Shown piece by piece: positions 3,204 through 23,790 of a stretch of 64,000 bases of DNA. A program made the position numbers and the translations under genes. The notes below the pieces were generated by a model. The model was not told the origin of the DNA and ran no database searches. It saw nothing but the letters and a program-made list of their open reading frames with translations. Every line of letters starts with the position of its first letter. Within the stretch, counting starts at the first letter, position 1. The stretch is from an uncultured Bdellovibrionales bacterium (GTDB taxonomy: Bacteria > Bdellovibrionota > Bdellovibrionia > Bdellovibrionales > UBA1609), in assembly GCA_938002015.1 (NCBI GenBank), contig CALLAU010000003.1, positions 4,084 to 68,083 on the forward strand. Direction: 5' to 3'.

Positions 3204-3292
3204 ACAAATTCAGCGCCTTTTTATCTTTTAATGACTTGATCCATTTCAAATCTATGATCAACTATTCTTTTAAAAAGGAGTTGATCTAAAAT

Positions 3293-4294: not shown

Positions 4295-4368
4295 AGTTAA
4301 GAAATTTTTACTAAACAACACCTATGCACTTACCATAAGACTTTAGACTCCATAAGGTAGAGGTATTA

Positions 4369-5097: not shown

Positions 5098-5105
5098 AAA
5101 TTATA

Positions 5106-5957
5106 TTAAATATTTTTAAGAGCATGGATAAACCTATCTGAACTCGGTGGATCAATTCTAAAATATAATGAGGGCTCAACTAACTCTAGCTCAATTAACC
5201 TTTGCCCCTCTTTGGTTTTAAGCATATCAACTCTTGCATATAAGAGTTTTTCACCAATGGAGTCTACCACACGCTGAGCCTCATTAAGTTCTTCTTCATT
5301 TGGAGTATATTGACTTAAAGCGCTGCCATACTCTTCTTGAACTCTAAAGTCCCCTTTTTTTGGAACTTTTTTTACAACGTGGCTTAATTCATTGTTAAAG
5401 AAAAGATAAGAAATTTCTCCTTCTAAAACTTCTTCTATAAAAGGCTGTACAAACCAGTCTTCTTTTTTCTCAAGAGATTCAAATTTATCTATCATTTCTG
5501 CTTTACTTAAAATTTCAATTTTCTCAGCACTTGCACCTACAACGGGCTTAATGACCATTTTAACTAAAGGAAGATTTATAAGTTTATCTTTAAAAGATTC
5601 TAAATCTTCATCTTCAAGAAAAATACTTTCAATAACTTTTATACCGCTCTTAGATAAGTCTTTTAAATACGTTTTCCTTGAATTCCACTTTACAATAGAA
5701 CTTGAGTTTAATAGTTTACAGCCACTTTCTTTAATACTCTCTAAAACATTTAAAAATTCTTCTAAACGCTTGGTATAGTCCCAAGTGGTTCTAATCACAG
5801 CATAGTCATAGTCACTCCAATTAACTGACTCATTTGACCATGAGATCACATCAAGACTGTCTTCAGGACAAATTTTCTTAAAAGACTCTAAAGCCAGTTC
5901 ATCATCAACAACATAATCAGAAAGATCATCACAAGTTAAAAAAACGTATTTTTTCAT
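5106..5957 (-). CDS. ATP-grasp domain protein (glutathione synthetase/RimK-like)
   Basis: 283-288 aa ORF with an ATP-grasp-like C-terminal half (...VIKPVVGASAEKI...WFVQPFIEEV..GEISYLFF...ARVDML...LIELELVEPSL). The ATG at 5957 follows GAGG. The ORF-track start is 5972. Confidence 0.55.
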   Translation of the reverse strand: MKKYVFLTCDDLSDYVVDDELALESFKKICPEDSLDVISWSNESVNWSDYDYAVIRTTWDYTKRLEEFLNVLESIKESGCKLLNSSSIVKWNSRKTYLKDLSKSGIKVIESIFLEDEDLESFKDKLINLPLVKMVIKPVVGASAEKIEILSKAEMIDKFESLEKKEDWFVQPFIEEVLEGEISYLFFNNELSHVVKKVPKKGDFRVQEEYGSALSQYTPNEEELNEAQRVVDSIGEKLLYARVDMLKTKEGQRLIELELVEPSLYFRIDPPSSDRFIHALKNI

Positions 5958-6346
5958 AAAAAACCTCATCAAGTAAGAAAATTAATAAAACTTATATATT
6001 ATTGCATATGTACATGGGAAGCTAATTCCTTAGCAGGTAATCAAAAACTGCTCTCTATTAAAACTTCCTTAGGCAAAACAAGCTTTACCCTCAGTATTAG
6101 TAATAAATCACTCACATATGGTTAAATACGTAAAAGACTAATTTTATCTCACTTTTAGACTTTCGACTAAAAAGCTTTCAACTTTTATTTTAAAACTTAA
6201 TCTTATTTCTTTAGAAATAGGTTATTAGTTTACACACTCTTTACATATTTAATATTTACAATAAAATCTAAATTCTTAATCATATTAACAAATGCGACTT
6301 TAGAGTTTATGATTAAAAGTATTAAAACCAACAAAGAGAGCACCCT

Positions 6347-7024
6347 GTGAATCATATCCTGTACTTAGAAGATGACCCTATATTAGGTGAAAGTTTAAAA
6401 CTGAATATGGAACTTGAAGGCTATCAAGTAACCTGGGTTAAATCACTTAAGCAAACAAGAGAACTTGCAAAATATGAAGCATATGACATAGCTATCCTCG
6501 ATTTAGGCCTTCCTGATGGAAGTGGTCTAAATATCTGTAAAGACATTAGAAAAAAAGAAGTCCATATTCCTATAATAATACTTACAGCTCAGCTTGATGA
6601 AGAAGTCGTTGTTGAAAGCTTAAATGCAGGAGCAAATGATTACGTTAAAAAGCCTTTTAGCAACAAAGAGCTCTTTGCTCGCATACGAGTTTCACTCAGA
6701 AAACCTAACCAAGAAAACGAAAAAATAAAATTTAAAGACATCACTCTCATACTAAACCAAAGAAAGTTTATGTATAAAAATAAAGAAATTACTTTAAACA
6801 GAAGAGAGTATGACCTCTTAAAAGTACTTGTTGAAAAAGCTGAAACGGTTGTAACACGCGAGCAGATGATTAGCTTTGCTGGGCTTGGTGAAGACGTTAT
6901 TGATAGAACAGTGGATTCTCATTTAAGCCACATTAGATCAAAACTTAGAAAAGAAGGCGTTGAAAACATTCAAATTAAATCTGAATATGGTCTTGGCTAC
7001 AGAATGGTGTCTCTTGAAAAATAA
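6347..7024 (+). CDS. OmpR-family response regulator
   Basis: REC domain (LYLEDD...ILDLGLPDGSG...VKKPF) plus winged-helix Trans_reg_C (ITLNRREYDLLKVL...VDSHLSHIRSKLRK...GLGYRM). GTG start. Confidence 0.85.
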   Translation: MNHILYLEDDPILGESLKLNMELEGYQVTWVKSLKQTRELAKYEAYDIAILDLGLPDGSGLNICKDIRKKEVHIPIIILTAQLDEEVVVESLNAGANDYVKKPFSNKELFARIRVSLRKPNQENEKIKFKDITLILNQRKFMYKNKEITLNRREYDLLKVLVEKAETVVTREQMISFAGLGEDVIDRTVDSHLSHIRSKLRKEGVENIQIKSEYGLGYRMVSLEK

Positions 7025-8510
7025 ACTAAGCTCTCCTTTTTTGCGATACCTCACGCTAGGAACATCGATTTCTTTCATCGTTATTATTTTATCCATCTTA
7101 AGTCTTCAAATTGTAAAACAAGTTACTCAAGAGGATAGTATTCAAAAGTTTACCAGACCTCCTGAAATCATTTCTTTTTTTATTAAGAACACTCCTAAGG
7201 ATAAAAGAATTCAATTAATTAATGATTTAAACGCTTCTCATAGAGCGAATTACCCATTTAAGGTTTTACTAACAAACTCTATTGGAGACATTCTTGCTCC
7301 AAAAGAAAATGTAGTAAAAAAAATTGATATAGATACTTTCTTACCTCTCTTTGAGTTTCATAATAAAAAAATAAACCATCAAAGAAATCACAAGAAAAGT
7401 AATATGTTTTCACTCCACAACCTCCTTACTCCTCTGAGACCAACTAGACATAGACCACCACCAAGGCATCTTAATGAAGCACCTAATTTTAAGTTTAAAC
7501 TCATAGATTCAAATAACTTCCTTGTTTTCCAAAGAAAAAACTTAAACATTCAAAATAACACAAAGAAAAGATTTTTCTTTAGCCTCCTTGCTCTTATATG
7601 CGCTCTTACACTTGGAATAGGCCTTACAATTACGTTCATGTTTCTCTCATTTAAAAGAAAAACCCTTGTCATTGATAATATCATTGAAAAGCTAAAAAGC
7701 GGAGATTTAAAGGCTCGCATTCCTGTAGGAAGAATTGATGAGTACAGCCAAACTGCCTATAGATTTAATGACATGGCTGAAGAGATTGAGAGCCTCGTTA
7801 ATTCTCTTAGAATCACTGAAAACTCGAGAAAGAATTTAATGAGAGAGTTAGCTCATGATTTAAGAACTCCAATTTCTTCATTAAAAAACTGTATTGAAAT
7901 GGTTAAAGAAAAGTCTAATCAACTCTCTGAAGATAAGAGAAATCAGCTTCTTAGTATCTCTTTAAAAGAAACTGAGTACTTTTCACTTCTAGTTGACGAT
8001 CTCTTATTTTTAGGTCAAGTCAATGAACCACGGTACCAGAAAGACTCTCATGAAATTTTCATTGACGACCTTATTCAAATTGAAGTGCAAAATCTAAAGG
8101 ATAGATACAGTAATATAAATTTCATTTTTAATGGCAAACTAAATCAAACTCCTTTTAAAGGTGATCGAAAATTAATAACTCGCTTGGTTAGAAACGGCTT
8201 AGAAAATGCATGTTCGTTTGCAAAAAATAAAGTTACTATTAGCACAGAAATTATACCTAATAAGAAATTTAGAATAAATATCGAAGATAACGGTCCGGGG
8301 TTTAGTGCAGGCTCCTTGGTTGATTTTGGAAAGAGAAAGTATAGTAGAGAAGTAGCAACTAGAGAATCTAATAGAATCTCTATTGGTCTTGGATCTGTTA
8401 TTATGAAGTCTATAGTAAGTTCTTATCGAGGTGAACTTAACGCTTCTAACGTGCTAGAAGACAACCACGTTAAAGGCGCTCTTCTTACGATCACTCTACC
8501 TTCAGTTTAA
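6987..8510 (+). CDS. Sensor histidine kinase (TM-periplasmic-TM, HAMP, HisKA, HATPase_c)
   Basis: H-box 'ELAHDLRTPISSL', N box 'RNGLENA', G boxes 'EDNGPGF' and 'GLGSVIM'. The ORF-track start 6960 overlaps the regulator. ATG 6987 or TTG 7014 is the more likely start. Confidence 0.8.
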   Translation: MVLATEWCLLKNKLSSPFLRYLTLGTSISFIVIILSILSLQIVKQVTQEDSIQKFTRPPEIISFFIKNTPKDKRIQLINDLNASHRANYPFKVLLTNSIGDILAPKENVVKKIDIDTFLPLFEFHNKKINHQRNHKKSNMFSLHNLLTPLRPTRHRPPPRHLNEAPNFKFKLIDSNNFLVFQRKNLNIQNNTKKRFFFSLLALICALTLGIGLTITFMFLSFKRKTLVIDNIIEKLKSGDLKARIPVGRIDEYSQTAYRFNDMAEEIESLVNSLRITENSRKNLMRELAHDLRTPISSLKNCIEMVKEKSNQLSEDKRNQLLSISLKETEYFSLLVDDLLFLGQVNEPRYQKDSHEIFIDDLIQIEVQNLKDRYSNINFIFNGKLNQTPFKGDRKLITRLVRNGLENACSFAKNKVTISTEIIPNKKFRINIEDNGPGFSAGSLVDFGKRKYSREVATRESNRISIGLGSVIMKSIVSSYRGELNASNVLEDNHVKGALLTITLPSV

Positions 8511-8620
8511 AAATAATTTTTGTATCAAATTGATACGGATCATATTTTTCTTTTTTGTTTCCACACTCCTTAAATATTGTTTTGCTAAATTAGTATAGAG
8601 TCTAATTAAGGAGGACAATT

Positions 8621-8908
8621 ATGATAACAAAAATACTTTTAACACTTACTTTAGTTCCATGTTTTGCTTTTGCAAGAGGACAGAAGCAAGGTCCACCACC
8701 ATTAAATGATGAGGCAAAATCAGCAATTGAAGCTTGTGGATTATCACTTCCAGAACGAGGACAAAGACCAAGCCGTGAAGAACATGAAGCAATTAAATCC
8801 TGCCTTAGTGAAGCTGGCATAGAAAGACCAAGTCGTTCAAAAAGAAGACGCTTTAGCAAAAGTAAAGATCAAAATGAGGAGAGCTACAGTTCAGGAACAC
8901 TTCAATAG
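8621..8908 (+). CDS. Small secreted protein with an internally duplicated Cys-containing motif
   Basis: Strong RBS (AAGGAGG, 8608-8614) and signal peptide MITKILLTLTLVPCFAFA. Two similar segments: EAKSAIEACGLSLPERGQRPSR and EEHEAIKSCLSEAGIERPSRSKR. It lies directly downstream of the two-component pair. Confidence 0.55.
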   Translation: MITKILLTLTLVPCFAFARGQKQGPPPLNDEAKSAIEACGLSLPERGQRPSREEHEAIKSCLSEAGIERPSRSKRRRFSKSKDQNEESYSSGTLQ

Positions 8909-8925
8909 CAATCTTTATTTTTTTT

Positions 8926-8971
8926 TGAAAATATCAACAAGAACTAAAAGTTGTACGTCTTGATATTTTCA
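8926..8971. terminator. Bidirectional hairpin between convergent genes
   Basis: Perfect 12-bp inverted repeat TGAAAATATCAA (8926-8937) / TTGATATTTTCA (8960-8971), with T/A runs on both sides. It sits between the 3' ends of 8621-8908(+) and 8997-9551(-). Confidence 0.5.
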
Positions 8972-8996
8972 ATCTCATAACTATATTAAGTTTAAA

Positions 8997-9551
8997 TTAT
9001 TTCTTAAGAAGGTACTTGTTTACTATTTCAGTATGCTTTTCTCCTGCTATAAGAGGTAAACTTGCAAAAAATTCTACACCACACTTTTCTTCTAAGTCAG
9101 GATCAATAAAAAAATGCATCTTCTTTCGACCTGGAATAACAATTGGCTCACCTGTTTCTGGGTTCACTCCCTTTCTTTCAGCTTGTACATCTAAATATAT
9201 TAAGCCAAAACCACTCATAAGATAAAAACCTTTAGATTTTAAATTCTCTAAAAGTTCTTTATCTAAATCTAATTTTTTCTCTAAAACAGTCTCTGCTTCA
9301 TCAGGATTTTTTTCCAAAAGCCAATCTTTAAAATGCTGGTGACTTCCTGGCTCTAATCTTTTTGGGTGTAGCTGTACTATATTTAAAAAGCTATTTTGTA
9401 TTGAAACCTCTAGACCTGCCATTTTATTAAAACCTATAAAAGCAGGGCTTGAAAAATCCTTTAAAAACTCCGACATCAACTTAATCACTTCATTCATAAA
9501 CTCAAACTCCCATGCTTCTAACAACATATACTTTATTAACTCAGACCACAT
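8997..9551 (-). CDS. Protein with C-terminal HU/IHF-like DNA-binding arm and unknown N-terminal domain
   Basis: The C-terminal 'ERKGVNPETGEPIVIPGRKKMHF' resembles the HU/IHF beta-arm signature (R-N-P-x-T-G-x-x-I-x-I-P). The N-terminal ~110 aa are unrecognised. Confidence 0.4.
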   Translation of the reverse strand: MWSELIKYMLLEAWEFEFMNEVIKLMSEFLKDFSSPAFIGFNKMAGLEVSIQNSFLNIVQLHPKRLEPGSHQHFKDWLLEKNPDEAETVLEKKLDLDKELLENLKSKGFYLMSGFGLIYLDVQAERKGVNPETGEPIVIPGRKKMHFFIDPDLEEKCGVEFFASLPLIAGEKHTEIVNKYLLKK

Positions 9552-9703
9552 GTGTAAAAAACTATCAAAACTTTCTATATAATAGGTTAGTTTTTCTCTA
9601 CCAAGACTAAAAGTAGTCTAATCTTAGCTATTACCTTGTAAGCCAGGGCAGGCTTCATGTATGGTAAATCTGCTTAATATTAAGCTTTTAATATACACAC
9701 AGT

Positions 9704-10056
9704 GGGGGCGCATTTGGTTTCGACGTGGGTGTTGAAGCTTAAGGAGCATGCCGGGGAGCATGAGGACCTCGTAAAAACATGCATTATAGTAATCGGCAAC
9801 GATTCAAACTTTGCTTTAGCTGCCTAGTCAGTTTAGCCGTGAACTCTTTCTGTGGTTTCGAGAGAGAAGTTCATGTCACTTAAGAGACCTCGACTCTAAA
9901 TTGCGCCTCATGGTTTAGAGTTTAAATAAAGTGAAGCAGGAATACAAAAAGGTTGTCTGTGGTCGCTTTGTATTTGTCATAAATCACTGACTAAGCATGT
10001 AGCGCCTTAATGTGAATCGCTTGCGGACGGGGGTTCAACTCCCCCCGCCTCCACCA
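9704..10056 (+). ncRNA. ssrA: tmRNA (transfer-messenger RNA), one-piece
   Basis: The 5' GGGGGCG pairs with the 3' CGCCTCC-ACCA, including the G3:U alanine-identity pair. T-arm GGGGGTTCAACTCCCCC. Internal tag ORF 9795-9827 = GNDSNFALAA*. The 5' 'TTTCGACG' region is typical of tmRNA. Confidence 0.92.
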
Positions 10057-10059
10057 TTA
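10049..10059 (+). repeat. att core copy 1 (attL) inside the 3' end of ssrA
   Basis: CTCCACCATTA. The same 10-11 nt recur at 16429-16438 and 17236-17246. Confidence 0.6.
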
Positions 10060-10243
10060 AAGCAAAAGAATAGCAGTTTTCTGCTAAATAATAAAAATCA
10101 AATAAAAACAATAAGTTAAGAAGAGCTCATAACAGCTTCTAAGTTAACCATTTCCCATAAATTCCTATTAAATCACGGTAGTTGCAAAAATTGTCTTTAC
10201 GGCTGTCTTTACAGCTTTAAATTTTGATTAGTAATTTATGGCT

Positions 10244-10276
10244 CCTCAATAAGAGAAAACTCATCTCTATTTGAGG
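10244..10276 (+). promoter_or_regulatory. Imperfect inverted repeat upstream of the island XRE gene
   Basis: CCTCAATAAGAGA (10244-10256) / TCTCTATTTGAGG (10264-10276). 11 of 13 positions are complementary and the loop is 7 nt. It overlaps a GAGGA that could be the RBS. Confidence 0.3.
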
Positions 10277-10316
10277 ATAGTTGTCATCGAACAAGTTTCT
10301 TTTCCCGAAAGGATTA

Positions 10317-10610
10317 ATGGAAATGAAACTAGATAAAACCATCTCAAAACTTTGTAAGACTGAAGGATTAACTTTATCTGCTTTAGCTAAAAAAGCTAAG
10401 GTTCCTACACAAACACTTCATGCATGGACAACTGGGCGAACATCAATTAACCCCGATCAAGTCAAAGCCGTAGCAAATATTTTAAAAGTCTCAACCCATC
10501 GTCTTCTATTTGATGAACCCGACCCTTACGCCCATCAAGCTGAAGAAGTTCTTGAAGAAATTTTCAAAGGAGACGTTAGAGTGACTTTAGAAAGAATAAA
10601 GAGGAGATAG
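10317..10610 (+). CDS. XRE-family helix-turn-helix regulator (island-encoded)
   Basis: HTH 'LTLSALAKKAKVPTQTLHAWTTGRTSINPDQVKAVANILKVSTHRLLF'. The start is uncertain (TTG 10281, ATG 10317 or 10323). Confidence 0.7.
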   Translation: MEMKLDKTISKLCKTEGLTLSALAKKAKVPTQTLHAWTTGRTSINPDQVKAVANILKVSTHRLLFDEPDPYAHQAEEVLEEIFKGDVRVTLERIKRR

Positions 10611-10614
10611 CTTA

Positions 10615-11031
10615 GTGATATTTTTATTCTCTGTACTGTTTATCAATTTATTCCCCAGACATGCTTTACCTTCGACAGTAATAGAAAAATTATATGATTT
10701 GCCAAAAAATCACTGTATTGAGATTAAACATCTACGTTGGTCTATAGTGCAAAAAGTTTCAGATCATGAATACTTTGCTCAGGGAGATGGAACAGCATCT
10801 TTAGGTTACGCAATAATTAAAACAAAAAAAGCCATTTACAGTGGTACCGGCATTCCTCTTGGAATATCAGTTAGAAAAGTAGGATCAACACTTGTTACTT
10901 TAAGCAACGGCTTTACTAAAAATGCTTCAATATGGAAAGAATGCAACTATGATGTTAACGCCGAGTGTGCAATTACGCCTTATGGCAGAATTGTAAAACC
11001 GAATCGAACCACACAAAAACCATGCAATTAG
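10615..11031 (+). CDS. Hypothetical small secreted protein
   Basis: 138-aa ORF starting 5 nt after the XRE stop, with a hydrophobic N-terminus (IFLFSVLFINLF). No recognisable family. Confidence 0.4.
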   Translation: MIFLFSVLFINLFPRHALPSTVIEKLYDLPKNHCIEIKHLRWSIVQKVSDHEYFAQGDGTASLGYAIIKTKKAIYSGTGIPLGISVRKVGSTLVTLSNGFTKNASIWKECNYDVNAECAITPYGRIVKPNRTTQKPCN

Positions 11032-11047
11032 TCTTTGAGGTTAATAA

Positions 11048-11605
11048 GTGAAAATTTTTTTTATAAGTTTCTTAGTAATATTACGGTATTTTATAATTGG
11101 AATATTAATCATATCTGTTTTTCTTTACATGCTAGGCTGGAATGAAACAACCAGAAAGGCACCTAAACATGAAATAAAGCTTGATAGTGAGTGGTCAACT
11201 TACAACCGAATAGATAAAATACGTAATAATTCATATCAAATTTATTCAATAAAAAGTCTCAACTCTTTTGAGCTTAAATTCCCCTACGATGGCTTGCAAT
11301 ATGCATCTATTGATTTGGTAAAATATCAAGGTGAATGGACATCCGCAGCTTTTATGATTGAAAGAGGAATTTTTGCTTGCAAATATGATTTTACTAAGGA
11401 CAACCCTTGTATATTTAAAGTTAAGTTCGGTAACTCGTCGGTTAAGAATTTTGTAATGCAAAATTCACCTGATAATACAGATCAAATCAAGATTTTTAAA
11501 AACTCTAAAAAATTTATAGACGAGCTTCTGAAAGTTAATGGAGTTATTATTAACGAAGCCGGCGTACATCAATTCGAATTCAAGTGGCAAAATATGCCAA
11601 ATTAA
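11048..11605 (+). CDS. Hypothetical membrane-anchored protein
   Basis: 185-aa ORF starting 17 nt after the previous stop, with an N-terminal TM helix (FFISFLVILRYFIIGILIISVFLYML). No recognisable family. Confidence 0.4.
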   Translation: MKIFFISFLVILRYFIIGILIISVFLYMLGWNETTRKAPKHEIKLDSEWSTYNRIDKIRNNSYQIYSIKSLNSFELKFPYDGLQYASIDLVKYQGEWTSAAFMIERGIFACKYDFTKDNPCIFKVKFGNSSVKNFVMQNSPDNTDQIKIFKNSKKFIDELLKVNGVIINEAGVHQFEFKWQNMPN

Positions 11606-11625
11606 GCTTAGGTTTTTACACAAAG

Positions 11626-12540
11626 CTATCTCTCAAATTGTCTAACTTGATTAACCAGCAATGGACCTATTTGCTGTGTTACACAGCCTTGTTTAAAATT
11701 CTTGAATTTTTCGACCAATTCCTTCAGTTCTTCAGACTCAATACTAGATATAACATACTGTTCAGCTGCTTTAATAACTAGCTGATTTAGTTTTTTTACT
11801 AAAGAAACTGTACATTCTTCAGAAGAGTCTTCTGAACCATTAAAAGAAGCTGAACCTGTAGCGACTAACAGCCCTAATTGAGGTGTTAAAGGGAAATATA
11901 TAATACAATTATGCCCAACCCCTTCATTTATATAACACACAGGGTTGTCAGAAGTTACAAAAGGAGTATCCGAGTTATTCTGCAAAAATACAAATTTTGA
12001 TTGCGAGAACCTCTCTATAGTTTTAGGCAAACCTTTTAAAGCTATCAATTCAACCCAGTCAGTTTCAGTAATCAAAGCCTTTAAATCGACACCTTCAAGC
12101 TCTTTAGGTCGAGGCGGAAACGCACCTTGCTTCTCAAGTATTTTAGCTGTTAAGTCAATTAAGGACTCTGTAGCTAACTTTCTTTGCTGTTTATTAGAAG
12201 GAGTAGCTTGAATAAGAACAGCCAAATATTCAGATATTATTTTTTTCATTTCTAAGTACGCTGCTCGCCTTCTTGTACCCTCTAAGAAAGCTTTTAAGTT
12301 TTCTGTCATTTGAAACCAGTTATTCTCAATAGGAACAAGAACCTCCTCAATTAACCTAGGATTTGACTCAATGAGTTTGTTTGTTGAGCCATTTCGGATA
12401 AAGCAAATCTCACCTCTTCCTTTTAAACGACAACTTAAACTTTGCTTATCATACACCCAGAGTTTTTTCTCTCCTGAAGGTAAGAAAGGCTTCATATATA
12501 CTTTAGAAAGAAAATGATCGTTTGGCTTCTTTTTACCCAT
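11626..12540 (-). CDS. DUF4238-family protein (family reported as a single-gene anti-phage system)
   Basis: N-terminal 'DHFLSKVYMKPF' (the H-x-[LV]-P/S-x-x-Y-[LM]-x-x-F opening of DUF4238) and central 'PFVTSDNPV' signature. Recognition is by motif only. Confidence 0.6.
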   Translation of the reverse strand: MGKKKPNDHFLSKVYMKPFLPSGEKKLWVYDKQSLSCRLKGRGEICFIRNGSTNKLIESNPRLIEEVLVPIENNWFQMTENLKAFLEGTRRRAAYLEMKKIISEYLAVLIQATPSNKQQRKLATESLIDLTAKILEKQGAFPPRPKELEGVDLKALITETDWVELIALKGLPKTIERFSQSKFVFLQNNSDTPFVTSDNPVCYINEGVGHNCIIYFPLTPQLGLLVATGSASFNGSEDSSEECTVSLVKKLNQLVIKAAEQYVISSIESEELKELVEKFKNFKQGCVTQQIGPLLVNQVRQFER

Positions 12541-12622
12541 CGAAGTAATTAATAAAGTAAATATTAAAAAAGTTCAAATAGAAGCACTTTTCATATTATC
12601 TAAAGTAGATAAAAATAGATTC

Positions 12623-12862
12623 ATGGGCAAACCAATAGGATATCCAAAAACAGGTGGTCGCAAGGCCGGCACTCCAAATAAGAAATCTAGGCATTTGATC
12701 CAGTTACTAGAGGAACTCAATATTAACTTAATTGAACAAATAATACTCGAAATACCGAATTTAAAACCTGAAGAGAAAGTAAGAACCTGCCTTCAATTAA
12801 TGCCCTTTGTTTATCCAAAGAAGAAACCTGAAGAGTTTGATTCATTAGATCCACTCTTTTGA
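12623..12862 (+). CDS. Small phage-type basic protein (GGRK-GTPNK motif)
   Basis: 'KTGGRKAGTPNKKS...LLEELNINLIEQ...LMPFVYPKKK' resembles small N-terminally basic proteins common in phages and integrative elements. Its 3' end overlaps the convergent ORF 12811-13683 by 52 nt. Confidence 0.4.
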   Translation: MGKPIGYPKTGGRKAGTPNKKSRHLIQLLEELNINLIEQIILEIPNLKPEEKVRTCLQLMPFVYPKKKPEEFDSLDPLF

Positions 12863-13683
12863 TTATATATTTTGCTAATCACAAAACTTCCTATTTCTTC
12901 TCCAGATTCTATCATCCTATGGAACTCATCAATTGCCTCAGAAAAAGTAATTCTACCAATGCCATCTTGATGCTTTTCATAAATCTCTACAAGACTATTA
13001 AAGTGCTTCTCAGCTTGTGCCTTTATGCTTGAGATATAGCCTTGCTCCCATCTAGCGTTTTCTTCATGAGTAGGAACAGGGAAATTGAAGTCTTCAAATT
13101 TAATTTTTGGACCTATTGCACTGTCTACAAAATGATTATCATAGGAAATTTGCAGCTTTCCACCTGGACGAATAAGCTCTCCAATTTTATTTCGAATTTG
13201 TCTATTTCCAGTTCCTTTGCTGCCTTTATAAAACATTAAATAAGCATACAAATAAAATGCTAATCCACCAAAGAAAGGCCTCCCTCTTCTCTTTCCTTTA
13301 AAGGGATCATAAGGCTCATCATCAATATACTCTACTAATAGATTGTCTTCTACAGTATTGAGAACCTGAGGTAAATGGCTTATCCAATCATCAACTTTAA
13401 GACCCTCATTTAATGTTTCAAATTTGATTTCATCTAATATGCTTCCAGCTTCAAAAGCTTTTAATTTACTAGATAAGCTAATGAGAGAATTATGTAGATC
13501 GTCTACTCTTCTTGCATCTACCTGAGTTGCCGCCTCCGCATAAGCTCCCGTTTCCTCAATAAGCATAACGCTAAGTAAAGAGCTTTCAATATTAACGACT
13601 CTTTTTTCAACTTCAATTTGCGCATAAATAACAGATTTTTCTTTTTTTTCTTTCTGCTTTTTTTCTTTTTCTATATCGAGCAC
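12811..13683 (-). CDS. Hypothetical protein, no recognisable family (290 aa)
   Basis: Long ORF with a GTG start preceded by GGAGAG. Lys/Glu-rich N-terminus and a basic patch 'KGKRRGRPFFGG'. No motif I can assign. Confidence 0.5.
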   Translation of the reverse strand: MLDIEKEKKQKEKKEKSVIYAQIEVEKRVVNIESSLLSVMLIEETGAYAEAATQVDARRVDDLHNSLISLSSKLKAFEAGSILDEIKFETLNEGLKVDDWISHLPQVLNTVEDNLLVEYIDDEPYDPFKGKRRGRPFFGGLAFYLYAYLMFYKGSKGTGNRQIRNKIGELIRPGGKLQISYDNHFVDSAIGPKIKFEDFNFPVPTHEENARWEQGYISSIKAQAEKHFNSLVEIYEKHQDGIGRITFSEAIDEFHRMIESGEEIGSFVISKIYNQKSGSNESNSSGFFFG

Positions 13684-13794
13684 AGTCTCTCCTATATTTC
13701 TTTACCAGTGCTCGAAGGAAAAAGATTTGGTCACATTAAGTTTCCCACAATCTCACAGACACTAATAGAGGAATCAAATTAAATCGTTACTTAA

Positions 13795-13812
13795 CTAATT
13801 ATTAATAATTAG
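13795..13812. promoter_or_regulatory. Perfect 18-bp palindrome in a divergent promoter region
   Basis: CTAATTATTAATAATTAG is its own reverse complement. It lies between the divergent ORFs 12811-13683(-) and 13846-14559(+). Confidence 0.35.
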
Positions 13813-13845
13813 AAGAGTACTGCTTTATTTAAAAGGAGTTATTTA

Positions 13846-14559
13846 ATGCCTAGTAATTTTAGTAATAAAGATAATTTTCATGAAAAATATTTATGTAATA
13901 CATATTATGAAAATAGCCAAATATCAGAAAAAAAGAAAGAATCTAAATTGAGAATTGATTTTATATATTCGACTTATCCAAGATTATTTAACTCAAGAAG
14001 GGCTAAAGTTCCTAAATTAATTCAGCCAAGCTTTAAAACATTAAAGTCAAAGTATTTTGAACTCACTAATAAGCTGAACTCAGCTAACCCAGAAGCTATG
14101 AGGACACGTGCAGAAAGTCGTTTTAAAACCAAGCTGAGACTTCATTCAAAAAAACAACTAAAACAGAGTATTTGGATTGGTTCACACTGCATAGATTTAT
14201 TTATTCCAAATATTAGGTCTCATCATAAATATCCAAAGAAAGTAATGCGAGGTCTTGCTATTGAAATCGATGGGGATTGTCATAAATATGAGCAAAAAGG
14301 AATTAAAGATGAAAGAAAAGGGGCTGAGCTTTTAGATTTAGGTATCGGAACAATTCATATACCTAACTGGGAATTCAATGAAACGACTATAAAAGACATA
14401 TTAAAATCAATATCAAACTTTGAACCATTAGATAGTCGAGAAAGAATAAGGCTTTGGACACGCATTTTTACTTATACATTAGCGACACACCTCACACATA
14501 AGGAATTTTTTCAAATTTTTAAGGTTAAACCTGATCTTATTGGAGATAAAAATGAGTGA
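13846..14559 (+). CDS. DUF559 / Vsr-like (PD-(D/E)xK) endonuclease-domain protein with Lys-rich N-terminal extension
   Basis: 'HCIDLFIP...GLAIEIDGDCH...DERKGAELLDLGIGTIHIPNWEF' matches the DUF559 pattern (D-F/L...IE-x-DG-x-x-H...D-x-x-R/K...L-x-x-x-G). Strong RBS AAGGAG. The 3' end overlaps the excisionase-like gene. Confidence 0.6.
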   Translation: MPSNFSNKDNFHEKYLCNTYYENSQISEKKKESKLRIDFIYSTYPRLFNSRRAKVPKLIQPSFKTLKSKYFELTNKLNSANPEAMRTRAESRFKTKLRLHSKKQLKQSIWIGSHCIDLFIPNIRSHHKYPKKVMRGLAIEIDGDCHKYEQKGIKDERKGAELLDLGIGTIHIPNWEFNETTIKDILKSISNFEPLDSRERIRLWTRIFTYTLATHLTHKEFFQIFKVKPDLIGDKNE

Positions 14560-14770
14560 TGATAAAAATAAAATGCTCGATGCTTGTTCTTTGACAACTG
14601 AATTGAAATGGTTAACTCACCAAGAGGCGGCTGACTACCTTAGAATAAGTAAAAAAGCTTTATATAACCTGTGCTCTCAAGGCAAGATAGAGCCCCATAA
14701 ACTTCTTTCAGATCGTAGAAACCGTTATCTAGTCTCAGAGCTTAATGAGCTCTTCTTTAAGAAATATTAA
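14552..14770 (+). CDS. Excisionase/AlpA-like helix-turn-helix protein (HTH_17 type)
   Basis: 'LTHQEAADYLRISKKALYNLCSQGKIEPHKL'. GGAGA RBS 5 nt before ATG 14552. It sits immediately upstream of the integrase. Confidence 0.7.
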   Translation: MSDDKNKMLDACSLTTELKWLTHQEAADYLRISKKALYNLCSQGKIEPHKLLSDRRNRYLVSELNELFFKKY

Positions 14771-14781
14771 AGGAGAAAGAA

Positions 14782-15897
14782 ATGGGAATAAAATTTCTTA
14801 AAGAGAAAAAAATTTACAGGGTGAGTTACTCAAAAAGAAACCCTAAAACAAGTAAATCTGTTAATAGAATGAGAACTCATTTTAAAAATCAAACAGGACT
14901 AAAAAAAGAGATCAGTACTTTAGCTGAGGCGAAGAGAGTTTATAATAAGTTAGTAATTGAAGTTGAAGAGGCAATCATTAGACAAGACATTCCTAACTGG
15001 AAACAACTGTTAGAAGAATTTGCACCCTATTATTTAAAAACTGGCGTTGAAACAAAAACAGTTGATACTTACATGAGTTGTCTGAATAAACATACGCAGT
15101 GCTGGTATAAAATCGGTGTGGAAAAGATTAATGACTCTATGATTAGAAATTTAATAAATGGACTAAGCTCTAAAAGCAAAAGTCATCAAAAAAACATGCT
15201 CAAATTCATCAGAAGAGTTTTTCAATTTGCTTTAGAAAAAAATTACATCAGTCGTAATCCGACACCAAATATGAAGTTTAAGTTTGGCAGTAAAAACTCT
15301 AAAGTTCTTTCTAGGACAGAGGCTAGTAAACTGTTAACTTTTGCCAAAATAAATAATTCCTCTTGGTACTATCATTGGTTAATGGCTTTATATACAGGAA
15401 TGAGGAATGGTGAACTTTTTGCTTTAAGATGGAAAGATATAAGTTTTGAAGAAAAACAGATTAAAATCCAACAATCTTGGAATAATAAGGACGGCTTTAA
15501 ATCTACCAAATCTGGTGACGAGAGAATAGTTCCTTTAGCATCTGAACTGATACAGGACTTAAAAGAACTTAGACTTACCAGCAAAGACAATGAGTTTGTA
15601 TTACCAAGGCTAAACAAGTGGATAAAAGGCGAGCAAGCTAGAGAACTTAGAAAGTTTCTAGTGGGAGTTGGCCTTCCAGAGATTCGTTTTCATGATTTAA
15701 GAGCAACTTGGGCCACATTACTTCTTTCTGAAGATGTACCACCAGTTAAAGTTATGGCAATGGGTGGATGGAAAGATATTAAAACTATGATGATCTACAT
15801 TCGCAAAGCCGGTATTGATTTACGTGATGCAACTTCTTGTCTTCAATTAGTTGATAAAGCAACTAATACTAAAGTCTTGAATCTGATAACACGTTAA
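14782..15897 (+). CDS. int: Tyrosine-type site-specific integrase
   Basis: Catalytic-domain motifs 'ALYTGMRNGELFALRWKDI' (Arg), 'RFHDLRATWATLLL' (H-x-x-R) and 'GGWKDIKTMMIYIRK' (Tyr). N-terminal SAM-like core-binding region. Confidence 0.88.
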   Translation: MGIKFLKEKKIYRVSYSKRNPKTSKSVNRMRTHFKNQTGLKKEISTLAEAKRVYNKLVIEVEEAIIRQDIPNWKQLLEEFAPYYLKTGVETKTVDTYMSCLNKHTQCWYKIGVEKINDSMIRNLINGLSSKSKSHQKNMLKFIRRVFQFALEKNYISRNPTPNMKFKFGSKNSKVLSRTEASKLLTFAKINNSSWYYHWLMALYTGMRNGELFALRWKDISFEEKQIKIQQSWNNKDGFKSTKSGDERIVPLASELIQDLKELRLTSKDNEFVLPRLNKWIKGEQARELRKFLVGVGLPEIRFHDLRATWATLLLSEDVPPVKVMAMGGWKDIKTMMIYIRKAGIDLRDATSCLQLVDKATNTKVLNLITR

Positions 15898-15928
15898 CAG
15901 ACTGAGCTCTTCGTGTTCAAATACTTAC

Positions 15929-16366
15929 ATGGCAGAGAAAAAGTTCGATAAATGTGACTGTTTTTCCAGTTTAGTTGGCAATCTCGGTAAGTTTTTACTT
16001 GGCTTGGCCGCTGTAATTGGAGCTTGTAAATCGACTCAAATCGCTCAGATCATTTACAACAATCAAACACAGTCACAAAATCAAAGCTGTAGCTTTCACA
16101 TCTCCCCCAATACTTACAAAGAAATTGGTAAGGTTGCTCAAAAACTTACTGAGGTAGAAGATCAAGATGCTAATCCAATCATAATTGAATATTTTCATGA
16201 AAGTGGAGATGATAAAGCTTTAAATATCTCACCCGCTTTCAAAGCTAACCTTTTAAAAGACCTAAAAGCAGCGAAAACAGCAGATTCAAAGGCGGATGTA
16301 CTAGAAGCTTACTACCTCAAAACAAAAATCAGAGATGATAAAATTAAAAAAGCAATTGGTCCGTAA
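15929..16366 (+). CDS. Hypothetical membrane-anchored protein (145 aa)
   Basis: ORF 32 nt after int with one hydrophobic helix (LGKFLLGLAAVIGA), followed by an 8-bp hairpin AGAATAGT/ACTATTCT (16381-16404). No family recognised. Confidence 0.4.
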   Translation: MAEKKFDKCDCFSSLVGNLGKFLLGLAAVIGACKSTQIAQIIYNNQTQSQNQSCSFHISPNTYKEIGKVAQKLTEVEDQDANPIIIEYFHESGDDKALNISPAFKANLLKDLKAAKTADSKADVLEAYYLKTKIRDDKIKKAIGP

Positions 16367-16428
16367 CCAATTGTCTTTATAGAATAGTGAAGTTCAACTA
16401 TTCTATATATTTAGGAAGACATCTTTGT

Positions 16429-16438
16429 CTCCACCATT
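16429..16438 (+). repeat. att core copy 2
   Basis: CTCCACCATT, identical to ssrA 10049-10058. Confidence 0.5.
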
Positions 16439-17245
16439 TAACAAGTTTGAGAACCTTAAATTTGACTGATTAAAGTCTAGAAGTAATAAATATGGATGAA
16501 AACACATTATACTATTTTTTTTCAACGATTGCCCAGTGCTTATCTGCCCTAGTTTCACTACTTGGGGTTTTTGTAGTTTTTAAGCTTCAAGACCTAAACA
16601 GTAGATTAGAGTCTAGAGCTGAAAAAATTTCCAACGCCTTTGTTAAGAAAAATTGGAAGTTTTTAATAAGAGCTGAAGGTGCTGAAAATAGAGTTGAAAA
16701 TCACATAGATGATGTTTCTCGCTGCAAAGAATTATGGGGAATTTTTTCTGATGCGTTAACTGGAAATATTAATAAGTATGAAGGTTTTTTTTACGGTCAG
16801 TTTAACCCTCAACGCAATAGTGGTGAGAGAGAGCGAACCGTAAGGAGTCAAATTCAAAAATTCTTAGGCTGGAAAGCTGAGTTTGATGCTTTATTCAAAG
16901 ATTTCAATAACAAGCCTAAAATTATTAAATCCTTGAAATTTGAAAGCGCCTTCGGATTAAGTCTTATCACATTATGTTTTGTCGCCTTACTTATTCCCGA
17001 GATGTGTCTATCAATTAATATTCTATGGTCAATTGTATTAATTTTTTTCGTCGTCACATCTATTTACATATGTCTGGTATACAGCTTAATTAAGAAGTGT
17101 TTTGAATATAAATAACTTTGGAAAGTTCATTTTCAATATTCAGTTTTTTATGACTTTTACAACAATCAGTGCACAACAATCAGCCTATAATTAAATATAT
17201 AGGGACTTGAATAGGTTCGACATCGAACAGCTCTGCTCCACCATT
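16439..17245. mobile_element. att-flanked ~0.8 kb mini-cassette (remnant or second tandem element)
   Basis: Flanked by att copies 2 and 3. It contains a single ORF and no recombinase. Confidence 0.45.
16492..17115 (+). CDS. Hypothetical 3-TM membrane protein (207 aa)
   Basis: N-terminal TM (YYFFSTIAQCLSALVSLLGVFVVF), a ~110-aa soluble middle and two C-terminal TM helices. No family recognised. Confidence 0.45.
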   Translation: MDENTLYYFFSTIAQCLSALVSLLGVFVVFKLQDLNSRLESRAEKISNAFVKKNWKFLIRAEGAENRVENHIDDVSRCKELWGIFSDALTGNINKYEGFFYGQFNPQRNSGERERTVRSQIQKFLGWKAEFDALFKDFNNKPKIIKSLKFESAFGLSLITLCFVALLIPEMCLSINILWSIVLIFFVVTSIYICLVYSLIKKCFEYK

Positions 17246-17246
17246 A
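17236..17246 (+). repeat. att core copy 3 (distal attR)
   Basis: CTCCACCATTA, identical to ssrA 10049-10059. It is followed by a short hairpin and ~150 nt collinear with the sequence following copy 1. Confidence 0.55.
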
Positions 17247-17452
17247 GACAAAGGTTTTTGCTGCTTTCAGCGAAAATCTAATTTTCAAAAGTAAAAACAA
17301 TAACTTAACCAAGGAAAGGTTCCATACCCCTCTATTCTCAAATCACGTTAAATCACAGTGAATAATGGCATTTGCAACAACTCGTAGTAATCGGCTGTAG
17401 TTAACGAAAAATGGTTACTACAAATCTTCGTATTTTGTGCTATTCACATTTC

Positions 17453-18025
17453 ATGGCAAAGCTTTTAAAGAAAACTAAACGACTTATTCTACGCCCGCTG
17501 GAGACCAAAGACTTTGAAGTGTGGCGAACAGCCAATTCAAAAAAACTCCCCTCTCAAAATAAATGGGATGACGGAAGGCTTCCCGAGAAGGACTTCACCA
17601 AAGCTAAATTTAAAGCATTACTTAAAGAACAAAGTGATCATAGAAAAGCTGATCAATATTATAGACTTGGAGTTTTTAATAAAAAAACAGGTGCTCTAAT
17701 GGGCACTGTCTCAGCAATGAATGTTGTTAGGGGCGTTACACACTCTTGTTATCTAGGCTACTTCATTAACAACAACTACTGGGGGCAAGGCTATGGTAAA
17801 GAAGCAGCGCTAGGTATGATTCACTTCTGCTTTAAAGAGATGAAGCTTCACAGGGTTGAAGCTGGAGTTGAACCAACTAACAGGCGATCTATTATGCTTG
17901 CAAAATCACTGGGACTTAGAAAAGAGGGCCTAAAGAAGCGTATGATTTTTTTAAGAGGAGCCTGGCTAGACTGCACTATGTACAGCGCTACGTGTGAGGA
18001 GTTTGGGTATAAATGGAAAACTTAA
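17453..18025 (+). CDS. GNAT N-acetyltransferase, RimJ/RimL-like
   Basis: 'RLILRPLETKDFEVW...' opening typical of Acetyltransf_3, 'WGQGYGKEAA' acetyl-CoA loop and 'LHRVEAGVEPTNRRSIMLAKSLGLRKEG'. ATG 17453 is preferred over the ORF-track start 17411. Confidence 0.75.
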   Translation: MAKLLKKTKRLILRPLETKDFEVWRTANSKKLPSQNKWDDGRLPEKDFTKAKFKALLKEQSDHRKADQYYRLGVFNKKTGALMGTVSAMNVVRGVTHSCYLGYFINNNYWGQGYGKEAALGMIHFCFKEMKLHRVEAGVEPTNRRSIMLAKSLGLRKEGLKKRMIFLRGAWLDCTMYSATCEEFGYKWKT

Positions 18026-21332: not shown

Positions 21333-21537
21333 GCGTCTTAGAGTTTTTCTTTACTAATTATTCTTCGTTTAGAGTATTTATTCATCATTTAGAACTTAGA
21401 ATTTAAGCAGCACTTAAAAAAAATCAAGCAGCCTTATCTTGCGCACTTCAGCAGCTCCTAAAACTAAGATCTTATTCGTGACAGTCTGCTAAATTTTAGA
21501 TTCAATACGTACCTAGCTTAAACAAAGGGATGCTTCT

Positions 21538-22521
21538 GTGCCTAAAATGAAACTTAGTGATATTAAAACAAATAATGAATACTTAAGATTAGACTCAAAT
21601 ATTGATATGCTTGCAAAAAGCATTGAGCAGGTCGGACTTATTCATCCACTTAGTGTAAATGAAAAAAATGAACTCCTTGCTGGAGGAAGAAGGTACTGCG
21701 CATTACAAAAGCTTGGTTTTAAAGAGGCAGAAGTCACTGTTATTAAAAAATCAGATCTAGAACAAGAGCTTATCTCAATTGATGAAAATTTAGTTCGCAA
21801 ATCCTTAAGTAAACTTCAATTTGAAAAATGTCTTAACAGAGGGCGCTCTATTTATGAGGAACTTAACCCTGATGCTGTAAGAGTATCTATGGATACGAAA
21901 AAATTAACTGCTGCTGAAAAAACTGAAAGAAAAGAGCAAGAACTTTTAGATGATTCATCTTTTGCTGCTGTTAGCTCTGAAAAATTAGGGCTTTCTAAAT
22001 CTGTGATTAGTGGAGCCATTAAAAGAGATGCCTTATCTTCAAGTAAAGTTAAGGAAGCTAGAAATCAAGGTGAAATTAATGCCGGGCAAGCCAATGAGCT
22101 TATTAGAATGTCTAAAAAAGACCAAGATAAAGTTCTTCCACATCTTAAAAAACACTCCATTAAAGAAATTAGGCAGTTTGTTGATACTGCATCTGAAACA
22201 AGTATTGAAGAAGCGTTAGAAGCTGATAAGAAAATTGCCAAACTTCCAAAAGAGTATGTTCAAGTTATTAACCTTAGTAAGCGCTTAAATAAAGTGCTAG
22301 CAAAAATACTAATTGAACAAATGACCTACTCAGGTACTGAAACTAATAAAATTAGTAACGAAGCACTAAAGTTAACTGATCATTTATCAGATTTTTTAGA
22401 CCTTCAAAAAAATGGTCCTCTTAAGAAGAACTCCACAAGCAAAGATTCAAACATTGATGAAGATCGTATTATTAGTTTAAATTCAGATAATACTAATAAC
22501 GGACTTCATGCAGATCTTTGA
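21538..22521 (+). CDS. Orphan ParB-like nuclease-domain (ParB/Srx fold) protein with long charged helical C-terminus
   Basis: 'GLIHPLSVNEKNELLAGGRRYCALQKLGFKEAEVTVI' matches the ParB N-terminal GxxR box region. There is no adjacent parA. Confidence 0.6.
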   Translation: MPKMKLSDIKTNNEYLRLDSNIDMLAKSIEQVGLIHPLSVNEKNELLAGGRRYCALQKLGFKEAEVTVIKKSDLEQELISIDENLVRKSLSKLQFEKCLNRGRSIYEELNPDAVRVSMDTKKLTAAEKTERKEQELLDDSSFAAVSSEKLGLSKSVISGAIKRDALSSSKVKEARNQGEINAGQANELIRMSKKDQDKVLPHLKKHSIKEIRQFVDTASETSIEEALEADKKIAKLPKEYVQVINLSKRLNKVLAKILIEQMTYSGTETNKISNEALKLTDHLSDFLDLQKNGPLKKNSTSKDSNIDEDRIISLNSDNTNNGLHADL

Positions 22522-22533
22522 TACTTTGAGCTT

Positions 22534-22577
22534 AAAAAGAGCGACTCTATGAGTTGACAGGAAAGCTCTTTTTTTGC
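22534..22577 (+). terminator. Putative terminator after the ParB-like gene
   Basis: AAAAAGAGC (22534-22542) / GCTCTTTTT (22565-22573) stem followed by a T-run. The loop is long (22 nt), so confidence is modest. Confidence 0.35.
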
Positions 22578-22580
22578 ACT

Positions 22581-22617
22581 ATATACATATTAGAACTATA
22601 ACTTCTAATATGTATAT
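22581..22617. promoter_or_regulatory. Perfect 15-bp inverted repeat upstream of the AAA/DUF4143 gene
   Basis: ATATACATATTAGAA (22581-22595) / TTCTAATATGTATAT (22603-22617) with a 7-nt spacer. It ends 19 nt before ATG 22636. Confidence 0.35.
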
Positions 22618-22635
22618 TAACTCTAAGGTATTGAA

Positions 22636-23775: not shown

Positions 23776-23790
23776 GAAAAGGACACATAA

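Follow-up and report, generated by a model that had tools for sequence, protein, structure and literature searches.

We analysed a 64,000-nucleotide (nt) stretch of contig CALLAU010000003.1 (GenBank assembly GCA_938002015.1) from an uncultured Bdellovibrionales bacterium, hereafter the window, around its transfer-messenger RNA (tmRNA) gene, ssrA, and the repeats that follow it (Table 1). The window contains a single tmRNA gene (tag GNDSNFALAA, predicted by ARAGORN), whose match to Rfam RF00023 was untruncated (model positions 1–374, 202.6 bits). The 10-mer CTCCACCATT occurs in the window in three exact copies, at 10049–10058, 16429–16438 and 17236–17245, all on the + strand and within 7.2 kb 3' of ssrA, which has the same orientation; copies 1 and 3 share one extra base (A), giving an 11-nt repeat, CTCCACCATTA. 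The repeat combines the terminal 8 nt of this gene (CTCCACCA, with the CCA end at 10056) with 2–3 nt of the 3' flank. These copies delimit E1 (10059–16438, 6,380 bp), which is a complete integrative island, and a shorter segment, E2, while the flank to the right of copy 3 appears, from its sequence, to be the left end of a third element, E3. The window thus very probably holds several integrative elements arrayed one behind the other at the 3' end of ssrA.

Table 1. Features of the ssrA locus, with positions counted from the first letter of the window.
Feature	Position	Strand	Basis
ssrA (tmRNA gene), intact, integration target	9704–10056	+	ARAGORN; Rfam RF00023
att core copy 1, attL of E1 (CTCCACCATTA; last 8 nt of ssrA + TTA)	10049–10059	+	Repeat search; contig branch at 10058/10059
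E1 left-end (P' arm) module, degenerate	10099–10237	+	Model R1, 54.4 bits, E 8.9e-15
Cro/CI-type HTH_3 regulator, conserved left-end gene of the family	10281–10610	+	Pfam PF01381, 1e-8; PHROG transcriptional regulators/repressors
orf138	10615–11031	+	No Pfam, PHROG, PADLOC or NCBIfam match
orf185	11048–11605	+	No Pfam, PHROG, PADLOC or NCBIfam match; one homologue, in locus L007
DUF4238 cargo gene	11626–12540	-	Pfam PF14022, 4.3e-23; PADLOC DUF4238-Pers, E 1.9e-4 only
orf79	12623–12862	+	No Pfam, PADLOC, PHROG or NCBIfam match; homologues in 5 family loci
orf290	12811–13683	-	No Pfam, PADLOC, PHROG or NCBIfam match
orf237, semi-conserved, just 5' of xis	13846–14559	+	No Pfam or PDB match
HTH_17 excisionase-like gene (xis)	14540–14770	+	Pfam PF12728, 1.2e-12; PHROG excisionases
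Tyrosine integrase	14782–15897	+	Pfam PF00589, 2.9e-25
orf145, orphan between integrase and attR	15929–16366	+	No match in any library or family locus
Putative E1 P-arm motif AATTGTCTTTA	16369–16379	+	Same 11-mer as 10189–10199; 50 nt upstream of copy 2
att core copy 2, attR of E1 and left boundary of E2 (CTCCACCATT)	16429–16438	+	Repeat search; contig branch at 16428/16429
E2, 807 bp, core-bounded, without recombinase	16439–17245	+	Cores; gene calls
orf207, ORFan, 207 amino acids	16492–17115	+	Hydrophobic stretches at both termini, as read from the sequence; no Pfam domain
att core copy 3 (CTCCACCATTA), displaced ssrA 3' end	17236–17246	+	Repeat search; collinear rightward with the ssrA flank of relative L086
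Putative E3 left-end module	17288–17427	+	Model R1, 87.2 bits, E 5.3e-25
GNAT (RimJ/RimL-type) acetyltransferase, first gene right of the array	17411–18025	+	Pfam PF13302, 1.8e-23

The first-pass annotation of this DNA had recorded that the end of ssrA recurs at three sites, that the interval from copy 1 to copy 2 contains an HTH_17 gene and a tyrosine integrase reading toward copy 2, and that the interval from copy 2 to copy 3 contains one open reading frame (ORF) and no recombinase; all three descriptions were borne out, and the HTH_17 gene also reads toward copy 2. It had also called for the frequency of the 10-mer to be checked: 0.06 matches are expected per 64 kb, and three copies were reached in 0/100 dinucleotide-preserving shuffles. 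That the repeats arose by chance in an ordinary stretch of chromosome is consistent with their shortness (10 nt) but has a practically negligible probability, being refuted by this expectation together with the exact branches in an assembly graph, the relative that lacks the 7.2 kb and the family-wide pattern described below. The window is AT-rich (~33% G+C), with no composition step at the repeats.

The integrase of E1 retains an intact catalytic set, since R208, H304, R307, W330 and Y339 were invariant in an alignment of 30 homologues, and Xer and integron models scored far under their cut-offs. Its AlphaFold model (predicted local distance difference test, pLDDT, 84.6) begins with a beta-sheet and helix at residues 3–69 (pLDDT ~83–93) and aligned over 367–372 columns to the full-length lambda Int entries 1z1b, 1z1g and 5j0n, arm-binding domain included; the model thus predicts three lambda-Int-like domains. 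The product of xis also matched TIGR01764 (4.2e-6, under the curated cut-off). No phage structural or replication genes were found in E1, where the PHROG matches comprised regulators and the excisionase only, and the integrase had no close relative in IMG/VR (best matches 24–34% identical); E1 is therefore not a prophage. No relaxase, coupling protein or type IV secretion Pfam domain was detected in any E1 or E2 protein, and no primase was found in E1. What was found corresponds to a tRNA or tmRNA gene (tDNA) island of the Islander type, i.e., an intact t(m)RNA gene, a displaced fragment on the same strand, a tyrosine integrase and sporadic occurrence, with only 8 nt of the gene in the displaced fragment.

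The limits of E1 were located to the base in an independent assembly, the Logan assembly of run ERR9287626, which was examined for contigs encoding exactly the same integrase protein. The locus is covered by three contigs: _422424 matches positions 1–10058 of the window without a difference and ends at 10058; _1281821 (6,430 bp) corresponds to 10029–16458 at 100% identity; and _38175 (47.9 kb) starts at 16429 and passes unbroken through copy 3. Neighbouring contigs share exactly 30 nt where they meet at copies 1 and 2, equal to k-1 in the k = 31 graph of Logan, and both 30-mers are unique in the window. Because contigs end where the graph branches, branches are placed at 10058/10059 and 16428/16429, the exact bases where attL and attR of E1 part from the junction of ssrA...CTCCACCATT with TAACAAG. 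We wrote the E1-free junction as ssrA...CTCCACCATT joined to TAACAAGTTTGAG, i.e., GGGGGTTCAACTCCCCCCGCCTCCACCATT followed by TAACAAGTTTGAGAACCTTAA, and the predicted attP junction of E1 as ...CATCTTTGTCTCCACCATT followed by AAAGCAAAAG. The T-arm sequence of ssrA is common to many taxa; since _422424 is unbroken for 10 kb upstream, the second path can be assigned to an allele of the same locus. The simplest reading of the contig breaks is a co-existing allele that precisely lacks E1, and in such an allele E2 would stay in place.

The same architecture recurred in a large family. Homologues of the integrase numbered 1,566 (the best non-self match 70% identical, most ~50%), and a profile scan of species-representative genomes returned 266 relatives. 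We examined 80 of these 266 loci, all from genomes other than that of the window, plus three contexts of the closest homologues. The 80 loci came nearly all from Bdellovibrionota-type metagenome-assembled genomes (Bacteriovoracaceae, Bdellovibrionales, Oligoflexia and Pseudobdellovibrionaceae), with a few binned under other names and one on a Bdellovibrio bacteriovorus chromosome; judged by these neighbours, the genome of the window belongs to a low-GC member of the same phylum. ARAGORN placed a t(m)RNA gene in 18 loci, namely tmRNA in 6 and tRNA-Met, -Asn, -Ser, -Gln or -Gly in the rest; the gene nearest the integrase lay upstream and on the integrase strand in 18/18, and in no locus was it downstream. 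The 3' end of the target recurred past the integrase stop, at +63 to +144 nt in nine loci and further out in L024 (+371, +597 and +823), L067 (+1688), L011 (+2969) and L015 (+6209). At least 8 nt of the target 3' end lay within 200 nt past the stop in 12/18 loci, compared with 2.9% of 1,468 control windows. Two of the closest homologues on long contigs, L209 and L210 (integrases 57 and 55% identical, respectively), are both inserted at ssrA, with the repeats CCGTCTCCACCATTT at +66 and CTCCACCA at +63. As these agree with the other family loci, a short repeat of the extreme 3' end and an integrase reading outward to attR are considered family traits. The contig end of L209 was also considered as a second case of a graph branch; it lay off the predicted position, and no conclusion was drawn. 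An xis homologue was present directly upstream of the integrase in 68/80 loci, at a distance of 9–95 nt in the 60 best of these 68, so that the lambda-like int-att geometry seen at first pass, with xis, int and att in this order, is the rule in the integrase family.

A further feature recurs in the family islands at the end next to the target gene. A non-coding module of ~140 nt was found 3' of targets of any type, including tRNA-Ser (L045), tRNA-Met (L029), tRNA-Asn (L075 and L072) and tmRNA (L011), among others, with similarities among loci of z up to 14.5, and 26.7 for L086 versus L045. Its consensus comprises AAAAACAATAACTTA, ~30 nt, two to three (A)AATCAC repeats 10–11 nt apart, TTG, and TGTAGT N7 TGTAGTT N12 AACTACA. 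A model of this module built from sequence only (R1) returned 29 copies in 1.26 Mb, 29/29 on the integrase strand. The copies took two positions: 43–67 nt past the CCA of the target gene, also in loci outside the training set (L209, L210, L051 and L057), or after an attR core, 118–188 nt past the integrase stop in L027, L042, L036 and L047, where the core was read directly, and further out in L005, L021 and L026. The attR core in L042 and L036 is CCTCCACCA, of the tmRNA type. At the other end of the islands, a direct TGTAGTA-like repeat pair preceded the attR core by 45–60 nt in most family loci, and in several cases the same variant of the motif occurred in both arms of one element, e.g., TGTTGT in L045, GTCGTT in L072, TGTAA in L209 and AATTGTCTTTA in E1. 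The degenerate module of E1 contains AAATTCC/AAATCAC repeats and TGTCTTTA twice, at 10192 and 10204. Since AATTGTCTTTA is present in both E1 arms, the P arm of E1 is placed immediately to the left of copy 2, where the graph also branches. The shared motifs and the lambda-like N-domain suggest that these are putative arm-type binding sites.

The second-best match to the family module lies to the right of copy 3, starting 45 nt past its CCA and extending into the start of the GNAT gene; the best match, at 88.3 bits, was in L086. This module reached z = 12–14.5 when compared with left ends of family islands inserted in tRNA-Asn, tRNA-Met and tRNA-Ser genes, and the left end of E1 was homologous to 17259–17403 (z = 8.1, 0/300 shuffles) and also resembled the L086 flank. 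Because 17288–17427 carries the conserved module, the flank to the right of copy 3 is read as the left end of the third family element, E3. In tblastn of the 64 kb with the family Int and Xis proteins, only the E1 genes matched, and no right end of E3 (a TGTAGT-type repeat pair followed by a core) was found in the window, so E3 is considered a relic or an element that has lost its right end.

The relative L086, on JGI metagenome contig Ga0400246_001848, carries a homologue of the GNAT protein (P0126, 68% identity) and a tmRNA gene at 5538–5893 (tag GNDYALAA, 71% nucleotide identity to the window ssrA). Directly 3' of this ssrA lies a homologue of window positions 17282–17403 (77% identity, z = 23.6 versus shuffles), so that the order is ssrA, flank, an HTH_3 gene and the GNAT gene (74% identity), with E1 and E2 (7.2 kb) missing. 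Collinearity starts from the first base past the CCA, as in CTCCACCATCAGAAAC (L086) versus CTCCACCATTAGACAAAG (copy 3). Because the L086 flank is collinear from this base, 10059–17245 is regarded as an insertion relative to a shared older arrangement, and E3, whose module is common to L086, as older than E1 and E2. No similarity was detectable between the HTH_3 gene of E1 and that after the module of L086. Other relatives of the GNAT gene (L085, 86% identity; L087, L211 and L212) were considered as anchors for an empty site and rejected as they are not beside ssrA, leaving L086 as the only informative one. A long degenerate tmRNA 3' remnant at copy 3, for which a GGTTCGA...CGAAC hairpin had seemed a hint, was likewise rejected, because alignments on the upstream side did not exceed shuffles.

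Copy 2 is the point at which a simpler arrangement would differ, namely a single 7.2-kb island spanning 10059–17245, with copy 3 as its right end, copy 2 a chance or secondary match, and orf145 and orf207 as cargo. Terminal repeats far from the integrase do occur in L067, L011 and L015, L086 lacks the whole 7.2 kb, and copy 3 shows no graph branch, all in line with such an island. The graph, however, branches exactly at copy 2 and not at copy 3, the E1 arm variant AATTGTCTTTA stands 50 nt before copy 2, a distance typical of family P arms, and only ~0.06 chance 10-mers are expected in 64 kb for a third copy. A single island is accordingly very improbable, and we retain the array of separate elements.

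Several points weigh against the array or parts of it. The att core is only 10 nt long; the arm motifs of L051 differ between its two arms; and promoter and terminator scans returned nothing exceeding shuffles. L086 is not a virgin attB, since the family module and an HTH_3 gene are present there; the unoccupied ssrA/GNAT junction sought by the first-pass annotation was thus found in so far as the 7.2 kb are missing, and not as an empty site. The E1-free allele is deduced from contig ends rather than read directly, and a different island may lie between the same two cores. Of the excision junctions proposed as a check, contig ends fit ssrA joined to the right of copy 2, while a circular attP junction of E1 was absent from the assembly graph: no contig break occurs at 10049 or 16438, and therefore no attP k-mers exceeded the assembler threshold. 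Neither a branch nor a polymorphism was seen at copy 3 in the unbroken contig _38175, in which low-frequency events are invisible. The window and this downstream contig differ by five single bases, at 20539, 21458, 21469, 21742 and 24477, which points to strain microdiversity in the sample; the ssrA-upstream and E1 contigs are 100% identical to the window. Given these mismatches, the E1-free allele may belong to a co-existing strain, and either current excision of E1 or a mere difference between co-existing strains may account for it.

That E1 is now immobile, with the E1-free allele as the ancestral state in a co-existing strain, is a real possibility that falls somewhat short of even. It agrees with the lack of an attP branch, with the more than one genotype implied by the five mismatches, and with the E1 module being the most degenerate of the set (54 bits versus 87 for E3). 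On the other hand, int and xis are intact, with the catalytic residues conserved, the E1 contig is 100% identical between assemblies and the alternative junction is base-precise. On balance, E1 is probably still mobile.

The nature of E2 is less firm. We infer its status as an element from the flanking cores alone; no left-end module was found in it, nor any similarity to other arms or loci. A common origin was not supported either for the P arms at copies 2 and 3 or for the left end of E2 and any arm (z ~ -0.4 to -1.1). The tandem integrative elements of the first-pass annotation are consequently demonstrable for the first interval only, the second being an integrase-less 0.8-kb segment and a candidate element. 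E2 may represent the decayed remains of an unrelated element, or else a unit that is non-autonomous and resembles a cis-mobilizable element (CIME), and it has the first property of a CIME, i.e., att sites of the neighbour on both sides and no recombinase. We consider it unlikely that E2 is a CIME-like or miniature mobile element moved in trans by an E1-type integrase and not a decayed fragment. Mobility would suit its two exact bounding cores, the direct 10-nt repeat CAACAATCAG at 17160 and 17174 (the only two in the window, 0.19 expected), which lies 53–76 nt before copy 3 in the position of a family P arm, and the ORFan gene, which fits mobile cargo and whose sole match among 5.8 billion proteins was itself; integrase-less, att-bounded units at ssrA have also been proposed earlier (PMC3146451). 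Against it stand the missing left-end module and family-arm homology, the lack of any other copy of E2 or its gene among the sequences searched, and the lack of polymorphism at copy 3 in ERR9287626.

Multi-copy arrays appear to be common in the family, because extra cores after the integrase recur in L011 (three), L015 (two), L208 (two, 407 nt apart) and L024 (three). The last indicates that duplication, and not serial integration, is the source of some att arrays: at 11250–11890, 3' of its integrase, a 226-nt unit is tandemly duplicated that contains a pseudo tRNA-Gln 3' fragment (22 nt) and a T-arm remnant, giving three identical att-like copies and a shorter fourth. In the window, serial integration is favoured because the intervals are unrelated to each other.

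Two other loci deserve mention in their own right. L208 (positions 4945–7095; ENA SATO17-1 scaffold_1998), with an integrase 61% identical and the closest homologue on a contig of >10 kb, has attR-like copies reading GCCTCCACCAATTTTGGCACCAGGAAT and encodes a 716-amino-acid primase-like protein (DUF7146/Toprim_3/DUF5906). Because of this protein, some family members may replicate or behave in a satellite-like manner. In JAUHWH010000005.1 (183635–217962), two family integrases, L005 and L012, lie 13 kb apart on one contig, with left-end modules at 1429–1541 and 12484–12612 of L005 and no tRNA gene within 10 kb upstream, an arrangement suggestive of two complete family elements in tandem.

Apart from the conserved genes, E1 carries variable cargo, as most of its remaining genes are unique to it, as are those of each locus to that locus. 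Homologues of the HTH_3 regulator were present near the left end in 11 family loci, e.g., in L075 (54% identity), just after tRNA-Asn, and homologues of orf237 288–494 nt upstream of the integrase in L011, L005, L020 and L016. A stretch of orf237, GLAIEIDGDCHKYEQKGIKDERKGAELLDLG, is reminiscent by eye only of DUF559/Vsr-like endonuclease motifs, with no Pfam, NCBIfam or PDB support. The orphan cargo that the first-pass annotation described is confirmed; its defence-type cargo corresponds to the DUF4238 gene, a weak candidate at the PADLOC score given in Table 1, which had no homologue among the 80 family loci.

Beyond copy 3, the annotation had overlooked that the flank is a conserved left-end module and not plain chromosome. 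The genes right of this copy encode two GNAT proteins, an APH-type kinase, a short-chain dehydrogenase/reductase (SDR) and a DUF4437 protein; the first GNAT protein had 134 homologues at E <= 1e-20, those named being from Bdellovibrionota, and its gene may be chromosomal or cargo of E3. In L085, the GNAT gene is immediately preceded by homologues of the ParB_N-like (~21547–22521) and M14-peptidase-like (~24052–24951) genes found in the window (nucleotide identities 81, 73 and 79% for ParB_N-like, M14-peptidase-like and GNAT, respectively), and the different gene order indicates that the region right of the array is rearranged between relatives. Genes for an AAA_14/DUF4143 ATPase and an HTH_3 protein also lie in the window region 21434–24920, and the DNA to the right of the array may itself derive from an old island. 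Further right, at 32018–32121, degenerate 42/18-nt direct repeats rich in AAGTCTAAA probably code for a Lys/Ser-rich low-complexity stretch.

Left of ssrA, a 2-mismatch relative of the ssrA end plus core, TCCACCACCATTA, occurs at 8692–8704 (+), 1 kb upstream of the gene and inside an orphan 95-amino-acid ORF (8621–8908); with 0.76 such matches expected, it is probably a chance match. Beside ssrA and divergent from it, a 184-amino-acid protein (8997–9551, -) has a C-terminal HU/IHF-type domain (PF00216, residues 86–156) and a long N-terminal extension. As a synteny probe, this gene gave 120 pattern matches and zero relatives in 185,579 species-representative genomes scanned. A metagenome scan with the 32-mer of the ssrA T-arm/acceptor returned the pattern in many unrelated, mostly high-GC taxa, with no family integrase nearby, and these matches resembled the window ssrA over the last 36–71 nt only.

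A mechanism can be proposed in which Int, bound to arm and core sites, exchanges strands within the core CTCCACCATT between the attP of the island and the final 8 nt of ssrA with 2 flanking nt. In attP, a P arm carrying TGTAGT-type repeats would be followed by the core and then by a P' arm of ~190 nt, the latter holding the 140-nt left-end module with its AAATCAC and TGTAGT-type repeats. Since the island carries the same 10-nt core, ssrA would be regenerated intact, and after integration the island would be flanked by ssrA on one side and by a displaced 10-nt copy of the ssrA end on the other, with the HTH_3 regulator at the ssrA-proximal end, presumably regulating the element, and xis-int at the distal end facing attR. 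Excision would require Int and the HTH_17 protein, the latter directing it. Newcomers would take the regenerated ssrA-proximal core and displace older elements outward, which predicts E3 as the oldest arrival, then E2, and E1 as the youngest; E1 is placed last because it appears still polymorphic in the sampled population. In this scheme we infer the recombination chemistry, which follows the established lambda and tDNA-island paradigm, the proteins binding the motifs, the insertion order, the nature of E2 and the extent of E3.

The family has apparently not been described, although it is large in Bdellovibrionota: genome papers on Halobacteriovorax and Bacteriovorax mention integrases without describing this island family. 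Its one arm architecture with several tDNA targets makes it usable as a natural data set on how integrases change targets. A broader proposal, which we consider distinctly unlikely, is that the family has kept one arm-site architecture while re-targeting core specificity among at least six tDNA types (ssrA and tRNA-Met, -Asn, -Ser, -Gln and -Gly), with relic modules acting as a landing pad and E2-like units mobilised in trans. Were this so, relic modules by the target gene (17288–17427, L086, L036 and L042) would supply arm sites and favour the capture or replacement of family members.

ssrA-targeted islands and tandem arrays of them are already well documented, so that the locus itself is ordinary. 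The accretion of ICESt1 and CIMEs in Streptococcus thermophilus, reportedly described by Pavlovic in 2004 and Bellanger in 2011, likewise places an integrase-bearing element beside an att-bounded, recombinase-less unit with a common core; unlike there, no conjugation module is present here and E2 is only a candidate for mobilisation. The concept of CIME accretion is cited in PMC3146451, in connection with the ssrA islands of Dehalococcoides, which are, as here, small islands in tandem 3' of ssrA, delimited by short direct repeats of the end of that gene and free of conjugation genes, and in which some units without an integration module were proposed to be cis-mobilizable (McMurdie et al. 2011, PMC3146451). 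Those islands use a CcrB-like serine recombinase module, DsiB, beside attL, with a 20-bp repeat and insertion in the T-loop (PMC3146451), whereas here a tyrosine integrase lies beside attR, at the other end, the repeat is 10 nt and the crossover would fall within the final 8 nt of the gene and the adjoining flank.

Among island targets, the tmRNA gene shows the highest enrichment (2015, PMC4383910). Integration restores the core at both island ends, which permits tandem arrays, and use of the regenerated core by newcomers is their accepted origin (Mageeney et al. 2020, PMC7192596); 125 tandems with two or more members are recorded in Islander (PMC4383910), and TIGER also treats tandems (PMC7192596). 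Like Islander-type tDNA islands, E1 has an intact tmRNA gene at one end, a displaced direct 3' fragment at the other, a tyrosine integrase and a regenerated target; unlike them, its identity block is 10 nt at the extreme 3' end, probably too short for the Islander fragment search though it marks real att sites, and its integrase lies at the ssrA-distal end, reading outward. Under the Islander definition of a tandem array E1 qualifies, and because E2 and E3 lack an integrase the array as a whole falls outside the strict definition. E1 also resembles the Int/Xis/attP system of lambda, with an integrase modelled as three domains, xis directly 5' of int, both toward att, and an attP of ~300 nt in which each arm has repeated motifs, co-varying between the arms of an element, the arm binding here being putative. 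Lambda differs in that the integrases are only 16–17% identical, and in E1 there are no phage genes, the target is the tmRNA end and the excisionase candidate is of the HTH_17/MerR type. The value of the locus is local: it offers base-precise limits of a probably still mobile 6.4-kb island in an uncultured predatory-type bacterium, and the family a modest addition: conserved attP arms, a distal and outward-reading integrase, a very short core, several tDNA targets and relic modules.

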